IMG/VR virus record: IMGVR_UViG_2579778622_000016
Coordinates: 1-20,747 of that record
Origin: a virus
Lineage: Duplodnaviria > Heunggongvirae > Uroviricota > Caudoviricetes
Length of the DNA: 20,747 nucleotides
Strand: one strand, 5' to 3'
Notes under the pieces: generated by a model
Databases searched by the model: none
What the model saw: only the letters and a program-made list of their open reading frames with translations
What the model was told of the DNA's origin: nothing
Made by a program: the position numbers and the translations under genes
Shown: in pieces, positions 3,468 through 17,238 of the stretch
Layout of the letters: each line of letters starts with the position of its first letter
How positions within the stretch are numbered: position 1 is the first letter of the stretch

Positions 3468-3751
3468 TAAGCCCCCTCTAGGTCAACATTGGGAAGCTTA
3501 TAGTCTGGTATGGTTTCATCCAATACCCTGGCGATAAAGTCATCTTTAGGGTAATAAATTACCGCTCCGAATTCTTCGCTTAAATAGTGACTTGAAGTAG
3601 CTGCGTTAGTATCGTTATCCCACGTTACAGGAACCAGACCTGTATGATCTTGTTTCCACGCAATAATAGGGTGGACCGTGTAAAGTGAACCATCATCGTT
3701 ATAAAGCACAACCCACCAACCGGGTTGAGCCGGCATATAATTATCCATCAC
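3467..3751 (-). CDS. Hypothetical phage protein (94 aa)
   Basis: ORF with GTG (3751) / ATG (3748) start behind SD GGAGGGG; stop overlaps the helicase start (TAATG). No recognisable motif. Confidence 0.5.
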   Translation of the reverse strand: MMDNYMPAQPGWWVVLYNDDGSLYTVHPIIAWKQDHTGLVPVTWDNDTNAATSSHYLSEEFGAVIYYPKDDFIARVLDETIPDYKLPNVDLEGA

Positions 3752-6052: not shown

Positions 6053-6817
6053 TTAACGAGGTAAAGTGGGGGGAGTATATCTGCCGATGCGGTCTTCTAT
6101 GGTCGGCAGAATGCACATGCTGTCGCTGAAGCGGTCATGCAACTGGTAAACCAGTTTCGAATCCATTTTTTCGAGAGCAGGCATTAACTGCGCTCGCCAG
6201 ATTTCGTTGATGCGCCGGAAGTTGTGACAGACGGCGCGGAGATTGTTGATGAACATTTCCTTCTCTGCGTCATTGATTGCTGTCTGAGCTTTCTGAATGC
6301 GTTTCGTGCTGCCATTCCGGTAGAAGCGTTCCTGAGCAGCAACAGCCTCATCCACGGTTGGATAGCACCCTACGTAAACGCTCTTCTCTCCGTCCCATGC
6401 ATAAGCCCTGTACGGATTGTATTTGCTCCGGTGATGGTAAATCATCTTCGGCAGACATTCCCTGTGCGGCGCCAGTATCGTGGAGGACTGCGGAACAGCG
6501 GTTTCTTTCTCGATAAGGTCAAGCACCCAACGGCGGAATTCTTTTGCTACTGGCGTTGTTGCGAACATCGCTACCAGGTGGGCACCGCGGAGGGAGAAAA
6601 TGCGGCGCGAGGCCTGTAAATTCCCCAAGGTAACCATTTTGATTACCTCGGACATGCCGAGAGTGAACTCATCCGTGTTGCGGGTGTAAATGTTAGTTAC
6701 GCTGCGAGCATCAGAATATTCTAGCGCGGTAGCCAGGGTAGCCGCAGTAAACCACTGCTTGCCGTTGTGTTCGACCGTTTCGAGAATGTGGGATTTGAAG
6801 ATGAGTTGAGTACTCAT
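6053..6817 (-). CDS. Bro-N domain protein (phage antirepressor family)
   Basis: 254 aa; N-terminal FTAATLATALEY...NLQASRRIFSLRGAHLVAMFATTPVAKEFRRWVLD fits the Bro-N pattern. SD AAGGA upstream; terminator-like hairpins on both sides. Confidence 0.75.
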   Translation of the reverse strand: MSTQLIFKSHILETVEHNGKQWFTAATLATALEYSDARSVTNIYTRNTDEFTLGMSEVIKMVTLGNLQASRRIFSLRGAHLVAMFATTPVAKEFRRWVLDLIEKETAVPQSSTILAPHRECLPKMIYHHRSKYNPYRAYAWDGEKSVYVGCYPTVDEAVAAQERFYRNGSTKRIQKAQTAINDAEKEMFINNLRAVCHNFRRINEIWRAQLMPALEKMDSKLVYQLHDRFSDSMCILPTIEDRIGRYTPPTLPR

Positions 6818-6967
6818 AGTCTTATGTCCTTGCTGATTTGTTCAGATTGCCCTGTGTTCAGCAGGGCGGTCGGGTACTTGAACACCGCAGCAAGCCGGCC
6901 CGTATCCTTAGCCTTGCGGCTGTTTTTCGGTATACGCGCTACCCGACCATATCTGAAAAATGGACAT

Positions 6968-7061: not shown

Positions 7062-9125
7062 TCAATCTTTCCGGTATCTGTAAGATTCGAATCCTCCGGC
7101 GTTTAGTGGAATGCTCGTGGCCCAGTCAGGAACGGTTGCCAGTAACTGGCTGAGATGTTCTGCTGAGTAATCGGGTGAGTCAGGGGCCTCACTTATAATT
7201 TCATCGTGTACCGTCAGCACAATGCTGTAACCGGCATCTTCGATAAGCGGCATGTTTCCGGCCAGAACGTCGCGGGCGGCCGCCTGGGTGACGTTCTCTA
7301 CCAGCTTTCCGCCGTAGGTTTTGAGTCGTTGCCATTTACGCGAATAAGAGTTAACACCCATATAGGTGATATCCCCTTTTTCGATAACCGGAGACGGGTA
7401 GCATACAGCGCGTCCAGATGGCAGCTGTATGCGCAGCCACGCGCCATCACGTTGAATTTTAAGATAGCCGCAATACAATGTTTTTTGCGGTGTGGCGATT
7501 GCTGTGCGGACAGTGCGCTCCAGCTCGTACCAGAAATCGCAGGTAGCCGGGTGCGCCCTGCGCCACAGGCGCTTGAGCGAGTCACATGCGATGAATACAC
7601 GCTCGGACAGGCCAAAGGTCGACTTACGTTTAACCGATTCGTCGTACCAGCTTTTCGCCTCGCGGATAACATCGCGGGGAATGTTTGGCAGTGCGGCGTT
7701 CGCCAGCTCGTCGAGATCGAGACCGTAAACCAGAGCAAAAGTGATGAAAGCCGATACACCACCTCCATAACCCAGACCGAGTTCCATGACTTTACCGATC
7801 TGACGCATGTGTTTATCAACATCATCTGGTGCAATATCGAAAGCTTTTGCATACGCCAGTTTATATAAGTCCGGACCCGTTCCGGCGTCGTACTCTCTGA
7901 ATGCATTCAGTTTCCATTCCTCTCCCGCCAGCCATGCCAGCATACGGCCTTCAATGTTTGACAAGTCACTTACCACCAGTTTTTTGCCTGTTGGCGCGAT
8001 AATGCAGCCACGTAACGCTGAACTGGTTAGTTCCATGATATTGTCAAACAGCAGGTCTGCACATCCGGCTTTCAGTGCTTCGATGCCTTCGTCTATTTGT
8101 TCCTGTTTTAGTGAAGGGCGGGGAAGGTTCTGGGGCTGGAATAGCCGTCCGGCCCAACGACCGGTACGTGACGCCCCGCAGAACTGTAGCGTACCGCGTA
8201 AGCGCCCGTCGTGGCTTACGCCTTTCATTAGTGCCTTGTATTTACTGGTGCTGGTAGTACTGGCCTGCAGGCGGATAGCCAGCAGTTCTTTCACGGCAGA
8301 TGGTAAATTGGGGTCGGCAATACGACGTTCCAGAGTACTGCGTTGCATGTGTGGTAGCTCCACACCGTAGGATTCAACAATGTGCTTAATCAACGCGTCT
8401 CGTTGTGTGGCTGCCTGCACTTCGCCATCAGTCATTTCCTGTGTACGCTTTGCCAGGCGCTTTTGCTCCTGGTCTACCGCTTCGATCGCAGCGCGCGCGA
8501 GTTGCATGTCCATGCAGACGCCCCGGTCGTTGATCTGCTGATCACGATGCCAGAGCGCCAGCTCTGTCCCCTGATAATTCCACTTCGGCAGACGTTTATA
8601 GACTTCGCGCATTGCCTCGATATCCAGTCCGGCGTAAGCAACAAAGCGCCGCCATTCTTCCGGGTGGGTTTTGCTGGTGGCACGGCGCAGTTTGCTATTT
8701 TTCGGACGTGGCTTACAGAACAGCTGGATCAGCGCCTTACCTTCTTTGTCCTTCGCTTTGTCTTGCGGGACGCCTAGTACTTCGCAGAGTTCCCCCAGAG
8801 ACCCCGGGAGACCGTGCGCCAGCGCCTGCACCATCGTGTCGCGCCAACGTTCGACTGGCGGTGCCAGTCGCGGCATTGCATAACGCAGAACGGTGCGGTC
8901 GAAGTGAGAGTTATGGAAATAAAGCAGGGTTTCAGGGTCTGCGATTGCTTCGTATAAGCCGTGTGGAATACCACCACCGGCAGTGATATCCCACACGTTT
9001 ACTGGCCCGTCGTTGATAGCCCATGCGAAAAGCATCACTTCAACGCCTTCGGCATACGCATGGGTACCGTTGTTGATCGGAATGTCACAATAGGTTTCCA
9101 GGTCGCCCCATAGTATATTGGACAT
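7062..9125 (-). CDS. Family-A DNA polymerase with 3'-5' exonuclease domain
   Basis: 687 aa; Exo I GDLETY, motif [13 protein letters not shown], motif [13 protein letters not shown], motif C VHDE. SD GAGGA 6 nt upstream. Confidence 0.9.
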
Positions 9126-9186
9126 AAAATATCCTCATATGGTATATGGTTAAATGCTAGATATCATGAATTAAAGGAGACAACTA
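9126..9186. promoter_or_regulatory. 61-bp divergent intergenic region with tandem TATGGTA/TATGGTT (operator-like) and both RBSs
   Basis: TATGGTATATGGTT at 9138-9151 resembles the TATGGT/ACCATA motifs found next to the CI-like repressor gene; flanked by the PolA start (minus) and the 9187 gene start (plus). Confidence 0.35.
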
Positions 9187-9876
9187 ATGACTGTGGGTAA
9201 TAAGAGACAGCCTAATGGATTACCTGAATATTATTGTCACCGTGGTAACGACATAAAAGATGCGATAGTTCGGGATTTTATTATTCAGCCTGTTGCACAC
9301 CTGAAACTTATTACTGGACAAACTAAAACCAGTTATTCCGGTTATCCGTTAACCGATCAGTACTATTGTTTTTCATTTAAAAAACGCTCTGATGAAAATT
9401 GTACAGGGGCTTTTTTCTGTGGTAGAGATGTTGCAAATGATTTCATTCGGCGTATCGGTTGTACAGAGCTGCCGTTATTTAATCCTATGAAATCGGATAC
9501 CAGTGCAGCAATAGAACGTTCCGGTTCTGGCTCAGGTAGTTCCGGTATTACTGTCAAGCCAAATGCTGACAAAAAGCTATTTATAGACGCAGCTCGTCTG
9601 TTAATGACGCTGTGGGATTCAACAAGTAAGGGACAAACCCCACTGGCGTCGGTTCTTAATGAAGCAATTTCTGGTGGTATAGATAAACCTCCAGAAATTA
9701 GACATGTAGTGGCGGTTAATACAATGTTGGGTAACACAAAAAATACTTTAACTGGCCTGCTGGATAAAGCAAGAGCGAAGTATCCTGATGTGTTATTCAG
9801 AGATTTTGATTTCACGCCTCTTAACGAGATTGTAAAACGTTCAAAATCATATAATAAGCATCCCCCTTGTTATTGA
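9187..9876 (+). CDS. Hypothetical two-domain protein (229 aa), opposite-strand accessory gene in the replication operon
   Basis: Strong SD AAGGAGA 7 nt upstream; visibly AT-richer than the flanking genes; Cys/His-rich N-domain, SGSGSGSSG linker, C-domain. No family recognised. Confidence 0.6.
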   Translation: MTVGNKRQPNGLPEYYCHRGNDIKDAIVRDFIIQPVAHLKLITGQTKTSYSGYPLTDQYYCFSFKKRSDENCTGAFFCGRDVANDFIRRIGCTELPLFNPMKSDTSAAIERSGSGSGSSGITVKPNADKKLFIDAARLLMTLWDSTSKGQTPLASVLNEAISGGIDKPPEIRHVVAVNTMLGNTKNTLTGLLDKARAKYPDVLFRDFDFTPLNEIVKRSKSYNKHPPCY

Positions 9877-13622: not shown

Positions 13623-13817
13623 TCAGTTGGTATTGTGCGTACGTGGTACCACGAGGTTGAAGCGGACACGCCAGTGCGTTGCAATGGTATGCAGGAAAGC
13701 ACCACATCTAGGGCAGTGCTCATAACATTCGTTGATTTGGTATCGTTTTGGCTTTGGTGTCTGAAGTTGTGTTTGGCAAGCAGGGCATTCACCTTTGAGC
13801 GGTTTATACGTTTTCAC
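13623..13817 (-). CDS. Small zinc-ribbon protein (64 aa), first gene of the leftward early operon
   Basis: GTG start with SD GAGGA; two CxxC pairs (CPAC ... CPRC). Confidence 0.5.
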   Translation of the reverse strand: MKTYKPLKGECPACQTQLQTPKPKRYQINECYEHCPRCGAFLHTIATHWRVRFNLVVPRTHNTN

Positions 13818-14020
13818 GCCGTTTCCTCATTCAGTTCACTTTGGTGGTTCGGCGGCTTCGACTTGTATCAGTAGACAGTGCTTCGCCGCACCCCAAAGGG
13901 AACTTACTGACCCGTATTGCCGACATCCTGTCCCGCCACGGTCCCGACGCATGGTTTAGAGTCGCGCCGTTCGACTTGATGAGGGATAAATTACTATGTT
14001 TATTGTATTACGTAAACCAC

Positions 14021-14055
14021 AAATATGGTATTTATGGTTGCAAAAATACCATATT
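14021..14055. promoter_or_regulatory. OL-like operator cluster (TATGGT / ACCATA half-sites)
   Basis: TATGGT at 14024-14029 and 14033-14038, inverted ACCATA at 14047-14052, inside an AT-rich stretch of the 323-bp non-coding region left of the repressor gene. Confidence 0.4.
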
Positions 14056-14140
14056 ATTGATATTTAAGTTAATTTAGTTGGTAGACAATCGGGGCGGGCG
14101 GTATGGCGGGAGGGCTTTTTCGCCCTCTTTCTGGATGGGA

Positions 14141-14764
14141 TTATCTTTTGCGGCGGTAAATACGATGTTCAATCATGACCCCTACGATCTGTAAGGGGAC
14201 ATCTGCACTTCGTAGCACGGGATAGTCGGGATTCAGGGGGACCAGTTCAAAATCATCAACGCCGATACCCAACGGGCGGTATTTTTTGAAAGTGGCCTCA
14301 TACCCGTTGTTCTTTGCAACGACGAATTCGCCAGGCATGGGGCATAAATCCGGGTCAATTATTACAATATCGCCTTCCTTAAACTCCGGTTGCATACTGT
14401 CACCATCTATCCGCAGGGCGAAGCAGGACTCAGGTACGTCGGAATCCGCGAGAACGTATTCCATATTTCCATCCATGTCCGTAGCGTCTTTTGCTTCCGT
14501 TAGCGCACCGGCCTGTACGTAACTGAGGATCGGGATGCGGCGGGTACTTATTTCCGCCAGGGGCATTATATTCCTGCCATTTAAAAGCCAGTCGGGACTG
14601 CATTTCAGTGCCTTTGAAAGCTCTATGATGTTGCGGGGCTTCCGGGTCTTTCCGCTTTCAATAGTCTCAATGGATTGCTGGCTGACCCCCGCGATTGCTG
14701 CAACTTCTGTTTGTGTCATCCCGAGTTCTGTACGGCGTGCTTTAAAGCGTTCTGCAAGTGACAT
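14141..14764 (-). CDS. CI-like prophage repressor (N-terminal HTH, C-terminal S24 LexA-like peptidase)
   Basis: HTH LGMTQTEVAAIAGVSQQSIETIESG; S24 motifs GDSM (Ser) and VVAKNNGYEATFKKY (Lys). SD AGGGGG upstream of the ATG at 14764; the track's extension to 14830 lacks an RBS. Confidence 0.85.
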   Translation of the reverse strand: MSLAERFKARRTELGMTQTEVAAIAGVSQQSIETIESGKTRKPRNIIELSKALKCSPDWLLNGRNIMPLAEISTRRIPILSYVQAGALTEAKDATDMDGNMEYVLADSDVPESCFALRIDGDSMQPEFKEGDIVIIDPDLCPMPGEFVVAKNNGYEATFKKYRPLGIGVDDFELVPLNPDYPVLRSADVPLQIVGVMIEHRIYRRKR

Positions 14765-14880
14765 GGTGTACCCCCTGATTCCTGATTTTTTGCTCTCCCT
14801 TATTAATACAATTTTTGTTGTAGTTGACAAACATCATTTATTGTCGCTAAATACCACATAAATTGTAGGAGACAATAATC
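14765..14880. promoter_or_regulatory. Divergent cI / cro promoter-operator region (OR-like)
   Basis: TTGACA at 14824-14829; inverted repeat TTATTGTC (14838-14845) / GACAATAA (14871-14878); AAATACCACAT (14850-14860); ATTGT-AGGAG-ACAAT palindrome whose centre is the cro SD. Confidence 0.5.
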
Positions 14881-15090
14881 ATGACACTTGCTACCCGAGT
14901 AAAAAACCAGCGTAAGGCTCTTGGCCTGACGCAGGTTATGCTGGCAGAACGCACAGGGATTAGCCAGCAGGCCATTAACCGCATTGAAAGCGGCCTTATA
15001 TCCCGTCCCCGTTATCTGCTGGAAATAGCTGTTGCCCTGAACTGCGACCCTAACTGGCTGTTGCATGGTACTCCCGCGGATAAGACGTAA
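14881..15090 (+). CDS. Cro-like HTH (XRE-family) regulator
   Basis: 69 aa; HTH LGLTQVMLAERTGISQQAINRIESG; SD AGGAG 9 nt upstream; divergent from the CI-like gene. Confidence 0.75.
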   Translation: MTLATRVKNQRKALGLTQVMLAERTGISQQAINRIESGLISRPRYLLEIAVALNCDPNWLLHGTPADKT

Positions 15091-15093
15091 CTT

Positions 15094-17238
15094 ATGGCCC
15101 AGATCAATCTCTCATACGGCCGGGAACTGGTAGACAACCTTCCTGTGCCCTGTACTGATGCCGATTTTAACCGGACATTTAAGCGTGTTAAAAAGTGGGC
15201 TCGTGCTATCGGCGCAACCAAACAGGATACAAAAAGCCAGCTTAACGCCAAAAAAGCGCGTCTGCCCTACATCTGGCACGCAATGAAGGACGTCACCAAA
15301 GGTCGTAACGCTGCTAATGCGGGCAACCGTGATGTGCTCTTCATGGATATGGACGGCTGTAACGCGCCTGCATGGGGCGCTTTACGCGATGCGCTGGCCT
15401 GTTTCTCATGTTTCACCTATTCAACGCCAAGTCATCTGCACCCCACTGCAAACGGGGAACATCGCTGGCGTATCTGCCTGGAGCTGAGTCGCCAGGTCAC
15501 GCCCGAAGAGTACAAGCGTCTTGGCCTTGCGGTTGAAAACTGGCTGATGGATTGTATCAGCCTGCTGGACGATTACACCGTCAAGTGGGACCACAGCGTT
15601 TACAACCCGGACCATATGGTTTTTGCCCCTGATGAAAAGGCCATCTTTGAACGTTTTACCGGGGAACCTGTTGACGTTGATATCCTGTTGGCCAGCGCAC
15701 CGGAAGTTACCATCCCTGAAAAAGCATCTTCCACAGACCGCGATGATTTGTCACGCGCTGTCGAACTGAACGGCATCAGTCAGGAAACTTTTGACGACCT
15801 GCGCGAAGTGATGTGGCATCCGGCTGTACTGGCGGACGCTGAGCCGGGTTGCGGTAAATACCATAGCTGGGCGGCGATGGGAAATCGTCTGGCATGGTTT
15901 AAGGGAACCGACTGGGAAGACGCAGCCCGTCAGCTTTGGGTCGACTGGTCGATAGCGGGTGGTGGCGATGGCATCAGCGCTGAACATAAATGGGACAGTA
16001 ACCAGCTTACCGCCGAACGAACCGGTTACCAGGCCATTTTCGCCCATGCGCAGAAAGCAGGGGTCGCTAACCCCGCGACCGACCGTATGCGCGGTTTTGT
16101 CGCCGGTGCGAATGACTTCGACGAGTTGCCACCGGAAAAACCGGAGCTGCCAAAGTCCAGACCGCACACAGGCGGCTACGGTAAGCCGGGAAAGTTCATC
16201 ATTGAAGGGATGGTGCCGCACGGGGTGACCATGCTCTATGGAGCTTCGTCATCGTTCAAATCCTATGGCGTTATCTCCATGCTCTGCCGTGTGGCGACGA
16301 AAACTCATCGCTGGGGCGGGCGTAACCTCAAAGGTGGCGCTGTTCTGTATGTTGCCGCTGAGGGTGGCAGCTCCGTTATGCCGCGTGTCGGCGCATGGGC
16401 GGATAAGTACAATGACGGTAAGCCACTGGATTTGTTCTACACCCTGCCACTGGCGGTTGATCTCTCTGTCCCCGCAAACGTCACAAAGATGGTAAACGAG
16501 ATTAAGCGCATAGCGTACCACACCGGCGAACCTGTCCGGCTTGTGGCCGTCGACACGCTGTCGCAGTCCATGATGCAGGGCGAGGAAAACAGCGCCAGTG
16601 ATGTGGCAAAATTCATGGCGGGCGCAACCAGGGTGTTCACCGAAACGGGCGCAGCGGTGATTATCGTTCACCACAGCGGCAAAGACAGCAGTAAGGGGAT
16701 GCGTGGCTCTTCTGCTGCCTTTGCTAACGCCGATGCGGTCATTCGCGTGGAACGCATCGGCGACGCGGTGAACCTGATTAACGAGAAACAGCGTACCGGT
16801 CCGGTACAGCCGACCCGCGGTTACATGGTACCGACAGTGCAGCTTCCTGACGACGTTATCGCGGCTAACGAAACGTACGATGATGAGTATACCAGCACTG
16901 AAGGGGAAGTATATGACCCTGTAAGGCTTACCACCGAGCGCGTGTTTGAAGATGCACCAATGGCGGAGATCACCCCACTGCTGGTGGATAAGGGCGACGG
17001 GAATACCAAAGGCAGCAGCGATGAATCCTGGGTATGGGAAAAGCTGGAGGCCTCCGGCGGCAGCATCAACCGTTCTGCGCTTCGCGAGTTATGGAAGGAT
17101 GAAACCGATAAAAGTACCGGTCAGTTACGTGCGGTTCTGGGGCGCATGAAAGAGAAGTATTACATCGTTGAGCGCGACGGCGTAATCAGGGATCCGCTAT
17201 GCAATGGCGTACCACCTGGAGGGGATGAAATTGCTTAA
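15094..17238 (+). CDS. Replication protein: N-terminal AEP primase-polymerase domain fused to a RecA-fold (AAA_25/RepA-like) helicase/ATPase
   Basis: 714 aa; AEP motifs VLFMDMDG (DxD) and TPSHLHP (SxH); C-terminal P-loop region GASSSFKS, Walker-B-like LVAVDTL and VIIVHHSGKD. Confidence 0.75.
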   Translation: MAQINLSYGRELVDNLPVPCTDADFNRTFKRVKKWARAIGATKQDTKSQLNAKKARLPYIWHAMKDVTKGRNAANAGNRDVLFMDMDGCNAPAWGALRDALACFSCFTYSTPSHLHPTANGEHRWRICLELSRQVTPEEYKRLGLAVENWLMDCISLLDDYTVKWDHSVYNPDHMVFAPDEKAIFERFTGEPVDVDILLASAPEVTIPEKASSTDRDDLSRAVELNGISQETFDDLREVMWHPAVLADAEPGCGKYHSWAAMGNRLAWFKGTDWEDAARQLWVDWSIAGGGDGISAEHKWDSNQLTAERTGYQAIFAHAQKAGVANPATDRMRGFVAGANDFDELPPEKPELPKSRPHTGGYGKPGKFIIEGMVPHGVTMLYGASSSFKSYGVISMLCRVATKTHRWGGRNLKGGAVLYVAAEGGSSVMPRVGAWADKYNDGKPLDLFYTLPLAVDLSVPANVTKMVNEIKRIAYHTGEPVRLVAVDTLSQSMMQGEENSASDVAKFMAGATRVFTETGAAVIIVHHSGKDSSKGMRGSSAAFANADAVIRVERIGDAVNLINEKQRTGPVQPTRGYMVPTVQLPDDVIAANETYDDEYTSTEGEVYDPVRLTTERVFEDAPMAEITPLLVDKGDGNTKGSSDESWVWEKLEASGGSINRSALRELWKDETDKSTGQLRAVLGRMKEKYYIVERDGVIRDPLCNGVPPGGDEIA

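Follow-up and report, generated by a model that had tools for sequence, protein, structure and literature searches.

A predicted phage-434-type immunity switch with its own operator specificity in an Escherichia coli prophage

Immunity systems closest to the locus

Phage 434 is among the closest described systems to the locus analyzed here. Like this locus, 434 has divergent cI and cro genes and six AC..-N6-..GT dyads with A/T-rich centres. It has been reported that 434 carries three 14-bp sites each in OR and OL, and that the non-contacted central bases of these sites are read indirectly (PMC1636474). In this study, we examined a stretch of 20,747 nucleotides, referred to here as the window, which is E. 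coli prophage DNA and is 100% identical to NZ_CP100500.1 (strain LH50-c). The flanking genes differ between the two systems: 434 has lambda N, O and P, whereas the window has an HK022-type putL and a PolA/AAA_25 replication set, and the hex-like gene that follows cI in 434 is missing in the window.

In 434 operators, positions 1-3 of the half-site are invariant, and sorting is done by position 4 and the central bases. In the co-crystals of Harrison and Ptashne, Gln28 of the repressor reportedly meets A1, Gln29 meets base pair 2 and, with Thr27, the methyl group of thymine-3' in a pocket, and Gln33 meets position 4.

Lambda follows the logic proposed for the window: cI is flanked on either side by three operators, which overlap PR/PRM and PL, and the S24 repressor is cleaved on SOS induction. 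The C-terminal domain of lambda cI matches that of the window repressor (E about 1e-14). However, the lambda operators are 17 bp long, its HTH is different, its Cro has a non-homologous fold, and its PRM mRNA is leaderless, whereas a leader with a Shine-Dalgarno sequence precedes cI in the window. HK022 shares with the window a put-like RNA directly downstream of PL, at the distance annotated in phage O276, but its immunity genes are unrelated. Unlike the HK022-type pair, no second (putR-like) copy was seen after cro in the window.

The nearest repressors of cultured phages were those of CobraSix, Klebsiella phage ST16-OXA48phi5.2 and Yersinia phage vB_YenM_29.18, with 58-62% identity, and no cultured phage in the searched collection had a repressor more than 62% identical. 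These phages, which belong to group 2 described below, have a tripartite OR and OL, centre spacings of 23 and 22 bp and a PR -35 as in the window. Their Cro helix reads (R/K)QQS(L/I)QAI and, unlike in the window, their operators are ACAG-N6-CTGT; they are presumably heteroimmune to the window prophage. Pantoea phage PA-1 and Erwinia phage Eho59 encode repressors about 46% identical overall to that of the window, with a P22-like HTH and P22-like operators. For this reason they were rejected as informative for the operator family studied here. DNA-binding and S24 domains are shuffled between immunity types.

Operators, promoters and proteins at the locus

The initial annotation noted AAATACCAYAT-type sites on both sides of a CI-like repressor gene and compared them with OL and OR. 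The sequences that it quoted were all present, with coordinates off by 1-2 nt at most. A motif search of the whole window found three exact copies of AAATACCAYAT, at 14023-14033 (minus strand), 14044-14054 and 14849-14859 (both plus strand), where 0.03 were expected; no shuffle out of 100 gave as many as three. With at most one mismatch allowed, seven copies were found in the window against 0.66 expected. The flanking 11-mer is therefore genuine and far above chance. The bare TATGGT, present at 14024, 14033, 9138 and 9145 among other places, was not enriched in the window (12 against 8.1 expected; 12 was reached in 7 of 100 shuffles).

A repeat search found that 14849-67 and 14807-25 form an inverted repeat, which raised the suspicion of a longer dyad unit. 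It also recovered a 15-nt inverted repeat (14022-36 with 14041-55). The six sites that we predict are 14-bp dyads with the consensus AC[A/C/T]A-N6-T[G/T]GT, all with A/T-rich centres (Table 1). They are arranged as OR3-9 bp-OR2-8 bp-OR1 and OL1-9 bp-OL2-18 bp-OL3. Each 11-mer consists of an ACCA half-site and its A-rich flank, from OR1, OL2 (reverse strand) or OL3: 14023-14033 is the right half of OL2 plus flank, 14044-14054 the left half of OL3 plus flank, and 14849-14859 the left half of OR1 plus the PR -10. Judged from the DNA sequence, the 11-mer is one half of three of the six predicted repressor-binding sites of a 434-type switch. As an operator it thus holds up as an ACCA half-site with an A-rich flank, not as a complete 14-bp dyad. 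The outline of an OL/OR-like arrangement around cI was right as well, in that the sites flank the repressor gene and overlap the proposed divergent and leftward early promoters, but the motif definition was incomplete. OR2, OR3 and OL1, whose half-sites are ACAA, ACAT and ACTA, had been overlooked. The two TATGGT copies described as one helical turn apart are a real OL2 half-site (14024) and a copy in non-conserved spacer (14033); the latter was rejected as a site, since it falls in the OL2-OL3 spacer, which varies among 39 relatives.

Table 1. Features of the control regions and immunity genes. Promoters were assigned by position and homology; operators are predicted.
Feature	Position	Strand	Sequence or size	Remarks
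putL-like antiterminator RNA	13905..13976	-		82-84% identity to putL of HK022, HK75 and O276; 5' end of PL transcript
PL (inferred)	13988..14016	-	-35 TTTACG (revcomp 14011-16), 17-nt spacer, -10 TAATTT (revcomp 13988-93)	
OL1	13993..14006		ACTATGTTTATTGT	in PL spacer, overlaps PL -10 by 1 nt; colinear with 434 OL1
OL2	14016..14029		ACCACAAATATGGT	abuts/overlaps PL -35; colinear with 434 OL2
OL3	14048..14061		ACCATATTATTGAT	conserved; colinear with 434 OL3
G+C-rich hairpin	14105..14124			between cI stop codon and OL3; terminator-like match in scan; stem kept with differing sequences in relatives
Repressor gene (cI)	14141..14764	-	207 aa	434-type HTH N-terminal domain and S24 (LexA-like) autocleavage domain
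PRM (inferred)	14803..14830	-	-35 TTGTCA (revcomp 14825-30), 16-nt spacer, -10 TATTAA (revcomp 14803-08)	
OR3	14808..14821		ACAATTTTTGTTGT	perfectly symmetric; in PRM spacer, touches PRM -10; colinear with 434 OR3
PR (inferred)	14824..14852	+	-35 TTGACA (14824-29), 17-nt spacer, -10 CTAAAT (14847-52)	
OR2	14831..14844		ACATCATTTATTGT	weaker; in PR spacer, abuts PRM -35; same position as 434 OR2
OR1	14853..14866		ACCACATAAATTGT	right after PR -10, covers PR start; colinear with 434 OR1
cro gene	14881..15090	+	69 aa	homologue of 434 Cro

The exact pattern ACMA-N6-TKGT had three matches in the window (OL2, OR3 and OR1), all within the two control regions. With one mismatch this 8-base pattern was not enriched over the whole window (32 against 30.8 expected), so that OR2, OL1 and OL3 rest on position and conservation. 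We then scored 20,732 window positions with a position weight matrix built from the sites of relatives only, the window being excluded. OR1, OR3 and OL2 took ranks 1 to 3 (20.5, 19.8 and 17.7 bits), OL3 and OL1 ranks 4 and 5 (13.7 and 13.4 bits), and OR2 rank 7 (9.5 bits), outscored by a site in a coding region at 3688. The maxima in random sequence had a mean of 11.6 bits and a 95th percentile of 15.0, a level exceeded by three of the six operators. Real sites were told from background only by position, matrix and conservation.

The locus was then compared with 434 DNA (OL657227.1). From OR3 to OR1 the two align without gaps, with equal spacers of 9 and 8 bp. The 434 OR reads C-ACAAGAAAAACTGT-ATTTGACAA-ACAAGATACATTGT-ATGAAAAT-ACAAGAAAGTTTGT and the window OR reads T-ACAATTTTTGTTGT-AGTTGACAA-ACATCATTTATTGT-CGCTAAAT-ACCACATAAATTGT; the AC and TGT of each operator are invariant between them. 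Both OR and OL thus hold three 14-bp dyads with 434 spacings, except that the OL2-OL3 gap is 17 bp in 434 and 18 bp in the window; OL1-9-OL2 is the same. In the public 434 record, protein_bind features named 'OL1-OL3' lie at 1176-1257, inside the cI coding region, and the real OL dyads are found at about 246-310; these features look like a misplaced annotation.

The hexamers proposed for PR, PRM and PL occupy the 434 promoter positions, and a generic sigma-70 scan of 13700-15200 called none of them; all three -10 hexamers are imperfect. The 434 PR (TTGACA-17-GAAAAT) lies in the same columns as the window PR, and the surrounding -35 context, TTGACAAAC, is invariant in the window, group 1, group 2 and 434. 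The PRM -35 is positioned as in 434, its -10 region is kept as TATTAA or ATTTAA in relatives, and the leader that precedes the cI ATG at 14764 carries an AGGGGG Shine-Dalgarno sequence. On the minus strand, 434 PL (TTTACA-17-TAATTT) aligns with the window PL and has the same -10; group 1 has TTTACA-17-TAGATT at this position. The annotation of phage O276 (NC_049951) puts putL on the same relative strand, 16 nt below the PL -10, and this distance matches the window. The putL-like RNA just downstream, at an O276-like distance, therefore places PL where the 434 alignment puts it. Rfam at the gathering threshold reported no put family and gave no match in the control regions. The DNA just below PL is mosaic in group-1 relatives, some of which have put-like sequence there and others unrelated sequence. 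A candidate for a further leftward promoter upstream of OL3, seen in relatives as TTACAA-16-TATCAA with its -10 overlapping OL3, was rejected since its -35 is not kept in the window. The G+C-rich hairpin has a T-run on the plus strand only, and it is probably the end of the PRM-cI transcript, as a terminator or a 3' stabiliser. Between OL3 and this hairpin, a block at 14062-14085 (ATTTAAGTTAATTTAGTTGGTA) is conserved across group-1 relatives, and it is in this block that the candidate leftward promoter could form in relatives.

The two proteins are a divergent two-domain repressor and a small single-domain HTH Cro, as in 434. Pfam assigned HTH_3 (1.2e-12) and Peptidase_S24 (6.5e-21, residues 78-198) to the repressor, and HTH_3 only (3.4e-15) to Cro. 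In the PDB, the repressor matched 434 repressor (9.5e-15) and lambda cI (1.1e-14), and its C-terminal domain matched lambda cI and UmuD. Cro matched 434 Cro with 54% identity (6.6e-19), and the matches of both proteins to 434 Cro or repressor had E values of 2.6e-15, 9.5e-15 and 6.6e-19. The repressor N-terminal domain, Cro and their 434 counterparts are all homologous (46-55%), and identity to the 434 proteins is 52-55%. Over the full length, the window repressor and 434 repressor share only 37% identity. A 50-nt inverted repeat (14652-14701 with 14944-14993, 72% complementary) joins the 5' parts of cI and cro; the two HTH domains are paralogous (49% protein identity), as they are in 434, and the repeat reflects this. 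The translation of the S24 domain contains ..VQAGAL.. with an Ala-Gly cleavage site, and ..GDSM.. and ..TFKKY.. for the Ser/Lys catalytic dyad, so that the repressor is by sequence of the self-cleaving LexA/S24 type.

Variation among relatives and rival readings

We compared 80 loci encoding relatives of the repressor. Group 1 comprises 48 of these 80 loci, with repressors about 85% identical, 34 distinct cI-cro spacers and 39 distinct regions downstream of cI. The blocks conserved in group 1 are not 11-mers but 16-bp dyads, T-ACNA-N6-TNGT-A, three on each side of cI, and the cI leader and the OL2-OL3 spacer vary freely while the operators are kept. The OR3 core is invariant in 34 relatives and OL2 is conserved in 39 distinct ones. 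At OR2, relatives all keep TTGT as the right half but differ in the left half. At the OL1 position relatives carry TACAATTTGAGTTGTA, and the A-rich flank of OL3 varies among them (GCAAATACC, GTGAATACT, TTTTTACC). Most relatives are close kin of one another, and part of the operator conservation may come from shared ancestry.

The window (recognition helix SQQSIETI) and group 1 (SQQSIESI) have the same operators. In group 2, with repressors about 62% identical, the helix is (T/R)QQSWQSI and ACAG-N6-CTGT operators occupy these same offsets, 23 and 22 bp from centre to centre; the OR2 position reads ACAGAAATAACTGT. Thus, the operator sequence changes together with the recognition helix, and TTGACAAAC is constant throughout.

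Compared with the 434 helix TQQSIEQL, the window helix keeps Gln28 and Gln29 and differs at residue 27 (Thr to Ser) and residue 33 (Gln to Thr). The twelve half-sites of the window are five ACAA, four ACCA and one each of ACAT, ACTA and ATCA. Half-site position 3 is invariant A in 434 but A, C or T in the window, and the ACA invariant at positions 1-3 that would go with the same specificity as, or homoimmunity with, 434 was not found in these twelve half-sites. We infer that the changes Thr27Ser and Gln33Thr may be linked to the relaxed position 3. On the sequence evidence, the window system appears to be a heteroimmune relative in the 434 family, distinct from imm434 and with a specificity of its own. 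The types of half-site are distributed according to operator, and relatives keep this sorting: OR3 is ACAA/ACAA in the window and in relatives, OL1 is ACAA/ACAA in relatives and ACTA/ACAA in the window, and OL2 and the promoter-proximal half of OR1 are of the ACCA type. It is a tentative and rather doubtful suggestion that this strict sorting is functional, with position 3 letting the repressor (Ser27, Thr33) and Cro (Ala30, Asn32, Arg33) discriminate between operators. If true, the position-3 code would differ from that of 434, and the system would represent a naturally occurring 'new-specificity' version of a protein-DNA interface known from textbooks.

We next considered other explanations of the repeats. 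Recurrence by chance in A/T-rich intergenic DNA would fit the A/T-richness of the control regions and the lack of enrichment of TATGGT alone, but it is already effectively refuted, and we give it next to no weight. The count of exact 11-mers was not reached in any of the 100 shuffles, the matrix derived from relatives picks these same loci, and the sites are conserved in dozens of relatives while the adjoining A/T-rich spacer is variable. The repeats may also be promoter elements, that is, -10 hexamers and UP-like A-tracts that recur because early promoters are similar. The AAAT of the OR1 11-mer is indeed the last four bases of the proposed PR -10, and OL2 and OL3 are located on the upstream side of the PL -35, a place in which UP-like A/T-rich DNA is often found. 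We nevertheless regard this as improbable: the conserved units are dyad-symmetric, with fixed 6-bp centres and 434 operator spacings. In addition, ACAA/ACCA changes to ACAG together with the recognition helix, TTGACAAAC staying constant, and since promoter elements are not expected to covary with the repressor, this covariation counts against them.

It was also considered that the 11-mer is a complete site for another regulator, with 14023-33 and 14044-54 forming one 32-bp palindrome and with a further site at 9137-9147 that would control the PolA/cargo pair. The excess of exact copies, the 93% complementarity of the 15-nt inverted repeat and the one-mismatch copy at 9137-47 would agree with this. 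However, each 11-mer forms the outer half of a dyad, and in each case the other half is conserved too. The A-rich flank is variable at OL3, and two adjacent palindromic operators give rise to inverted 11-mers automatically. The copy at 9138 is found alongside unrelated repressors and is missing where the cargo gene is missing, and no second DNA-binding gene specific to the immunity type was found. A separate regulator is therefore, in our judgment, very improbable. The reading that we prefer is that this E. coli prophage carries a phage-434-type immunity switch and that the motif belongs to its operators; from the sequence comparisons, we assign this reading a probability of roughly 0.85.

The TATGGT tandem at 9138-9151, near the PolA start, had been listed as a further copy of the operator-like motif. 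The tandem is present, but it scored only 2.6 and 1.1 bits with the matrix, compared with 9.5-20.5 bits for the six operators, and it does not covary with immunity type. The intergenic sequence with the tandem is identical in loci L081-L085, and its element TGGTATATGGTTAA (9140-9153) is kept in L086 and L087; the repressors of L081-L087 are only 24-38% identical to that of the window, over partial local matches. Among 80 PolA relatives we found 47 different upstream contexts, with the tandem element only alongside the divergent cargo gene (9187-9876 in the window), and TGGTATATGGTTAA was conserved with this gene even at 56% protein identity. Searching for further copies of TGGTATATGGTTAA gave none beyond chance. 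Since the tandem is kept with unrelated repressors and absent without the cargo gene, it is not part of the repressor regulon. TGGTATATGGTTAA reads TGnTATATG, which is extended -10-like, and the 9138-9151 element is probably the promoter of the cargo gene itself. The region upstream of PolA is a hot spot for cargo insertion. Rfam gave a full-length match to sRNA-Xcc1 (RF02221) at 6860-6948 on the minus strand (71.4 bits against a gathering threshold of 53), in the gap that separates the PolA gene (7062-9125) from the following leftward ORF (6053-6817).

The palindrome ATTGT-AGGAG-ACAAT over the cro ribosome-binding site (ATTGTAGGAGACAAT, 14862-14876) had been proposed to link cro translation to the occupancy of the operator. 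The right half of OR1 supplies its left arm, and the right arm is not conserved, reading GATAAC, GAAAGC or GACAAC in relatives. As an RNA hairpin it was rejected, with -3.4 kcal/mol and z = 0.29, no better than shuffled sequence. The coupling is thus not supported, as the palindrome is specific to the window and its hairpin is unexceptional.

Proposed switch and its meaning

In the switch that we propose, the 207-aa repressor and the 69-aa Cro, both as dimers, would bind the six 14-bp dyads. Repressor at OR1 and OR2 would block PR, which would serve cro and the replication genes, and repressor at OL1 and OL2 would block PL, which would serve the putL-led leftward operon including the nuclease and PolA genes. 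Repressor bound at OR2 would abut the PRM -35 and may thereby activate its own gene. OR3 lies within PRM, which would be shut off when Cro or excess repressor is bound, and Cro is expected to use the same operators as the repressor, with another preference among them. Given the QAG, GDSM and FKK motifs in the S24 domain, induction is predicted to depend on RecA, which would stimulate the repressor to cleave itself at the Ala-Gly site and so induce the prophage. Binding, order of occupancy, promoter start sites and PRM activation are all predicted here from position and homology.

Of 5,426 complete E. coli genomes, 64 had a match to the immunity region, and IMG/VR contains many copies. These findings leave the understanding of how such switches work unchanged. 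They describe a mosaic within one prophage, in which 434-type immunity is combined with an HK022-type put RNA and a PolA-type replication module. The family also adds a natural specificity variant to the 434 system, in which Thr27Ser and Gln33Thr accompany a position 3 that is relaxed or dimorphic.
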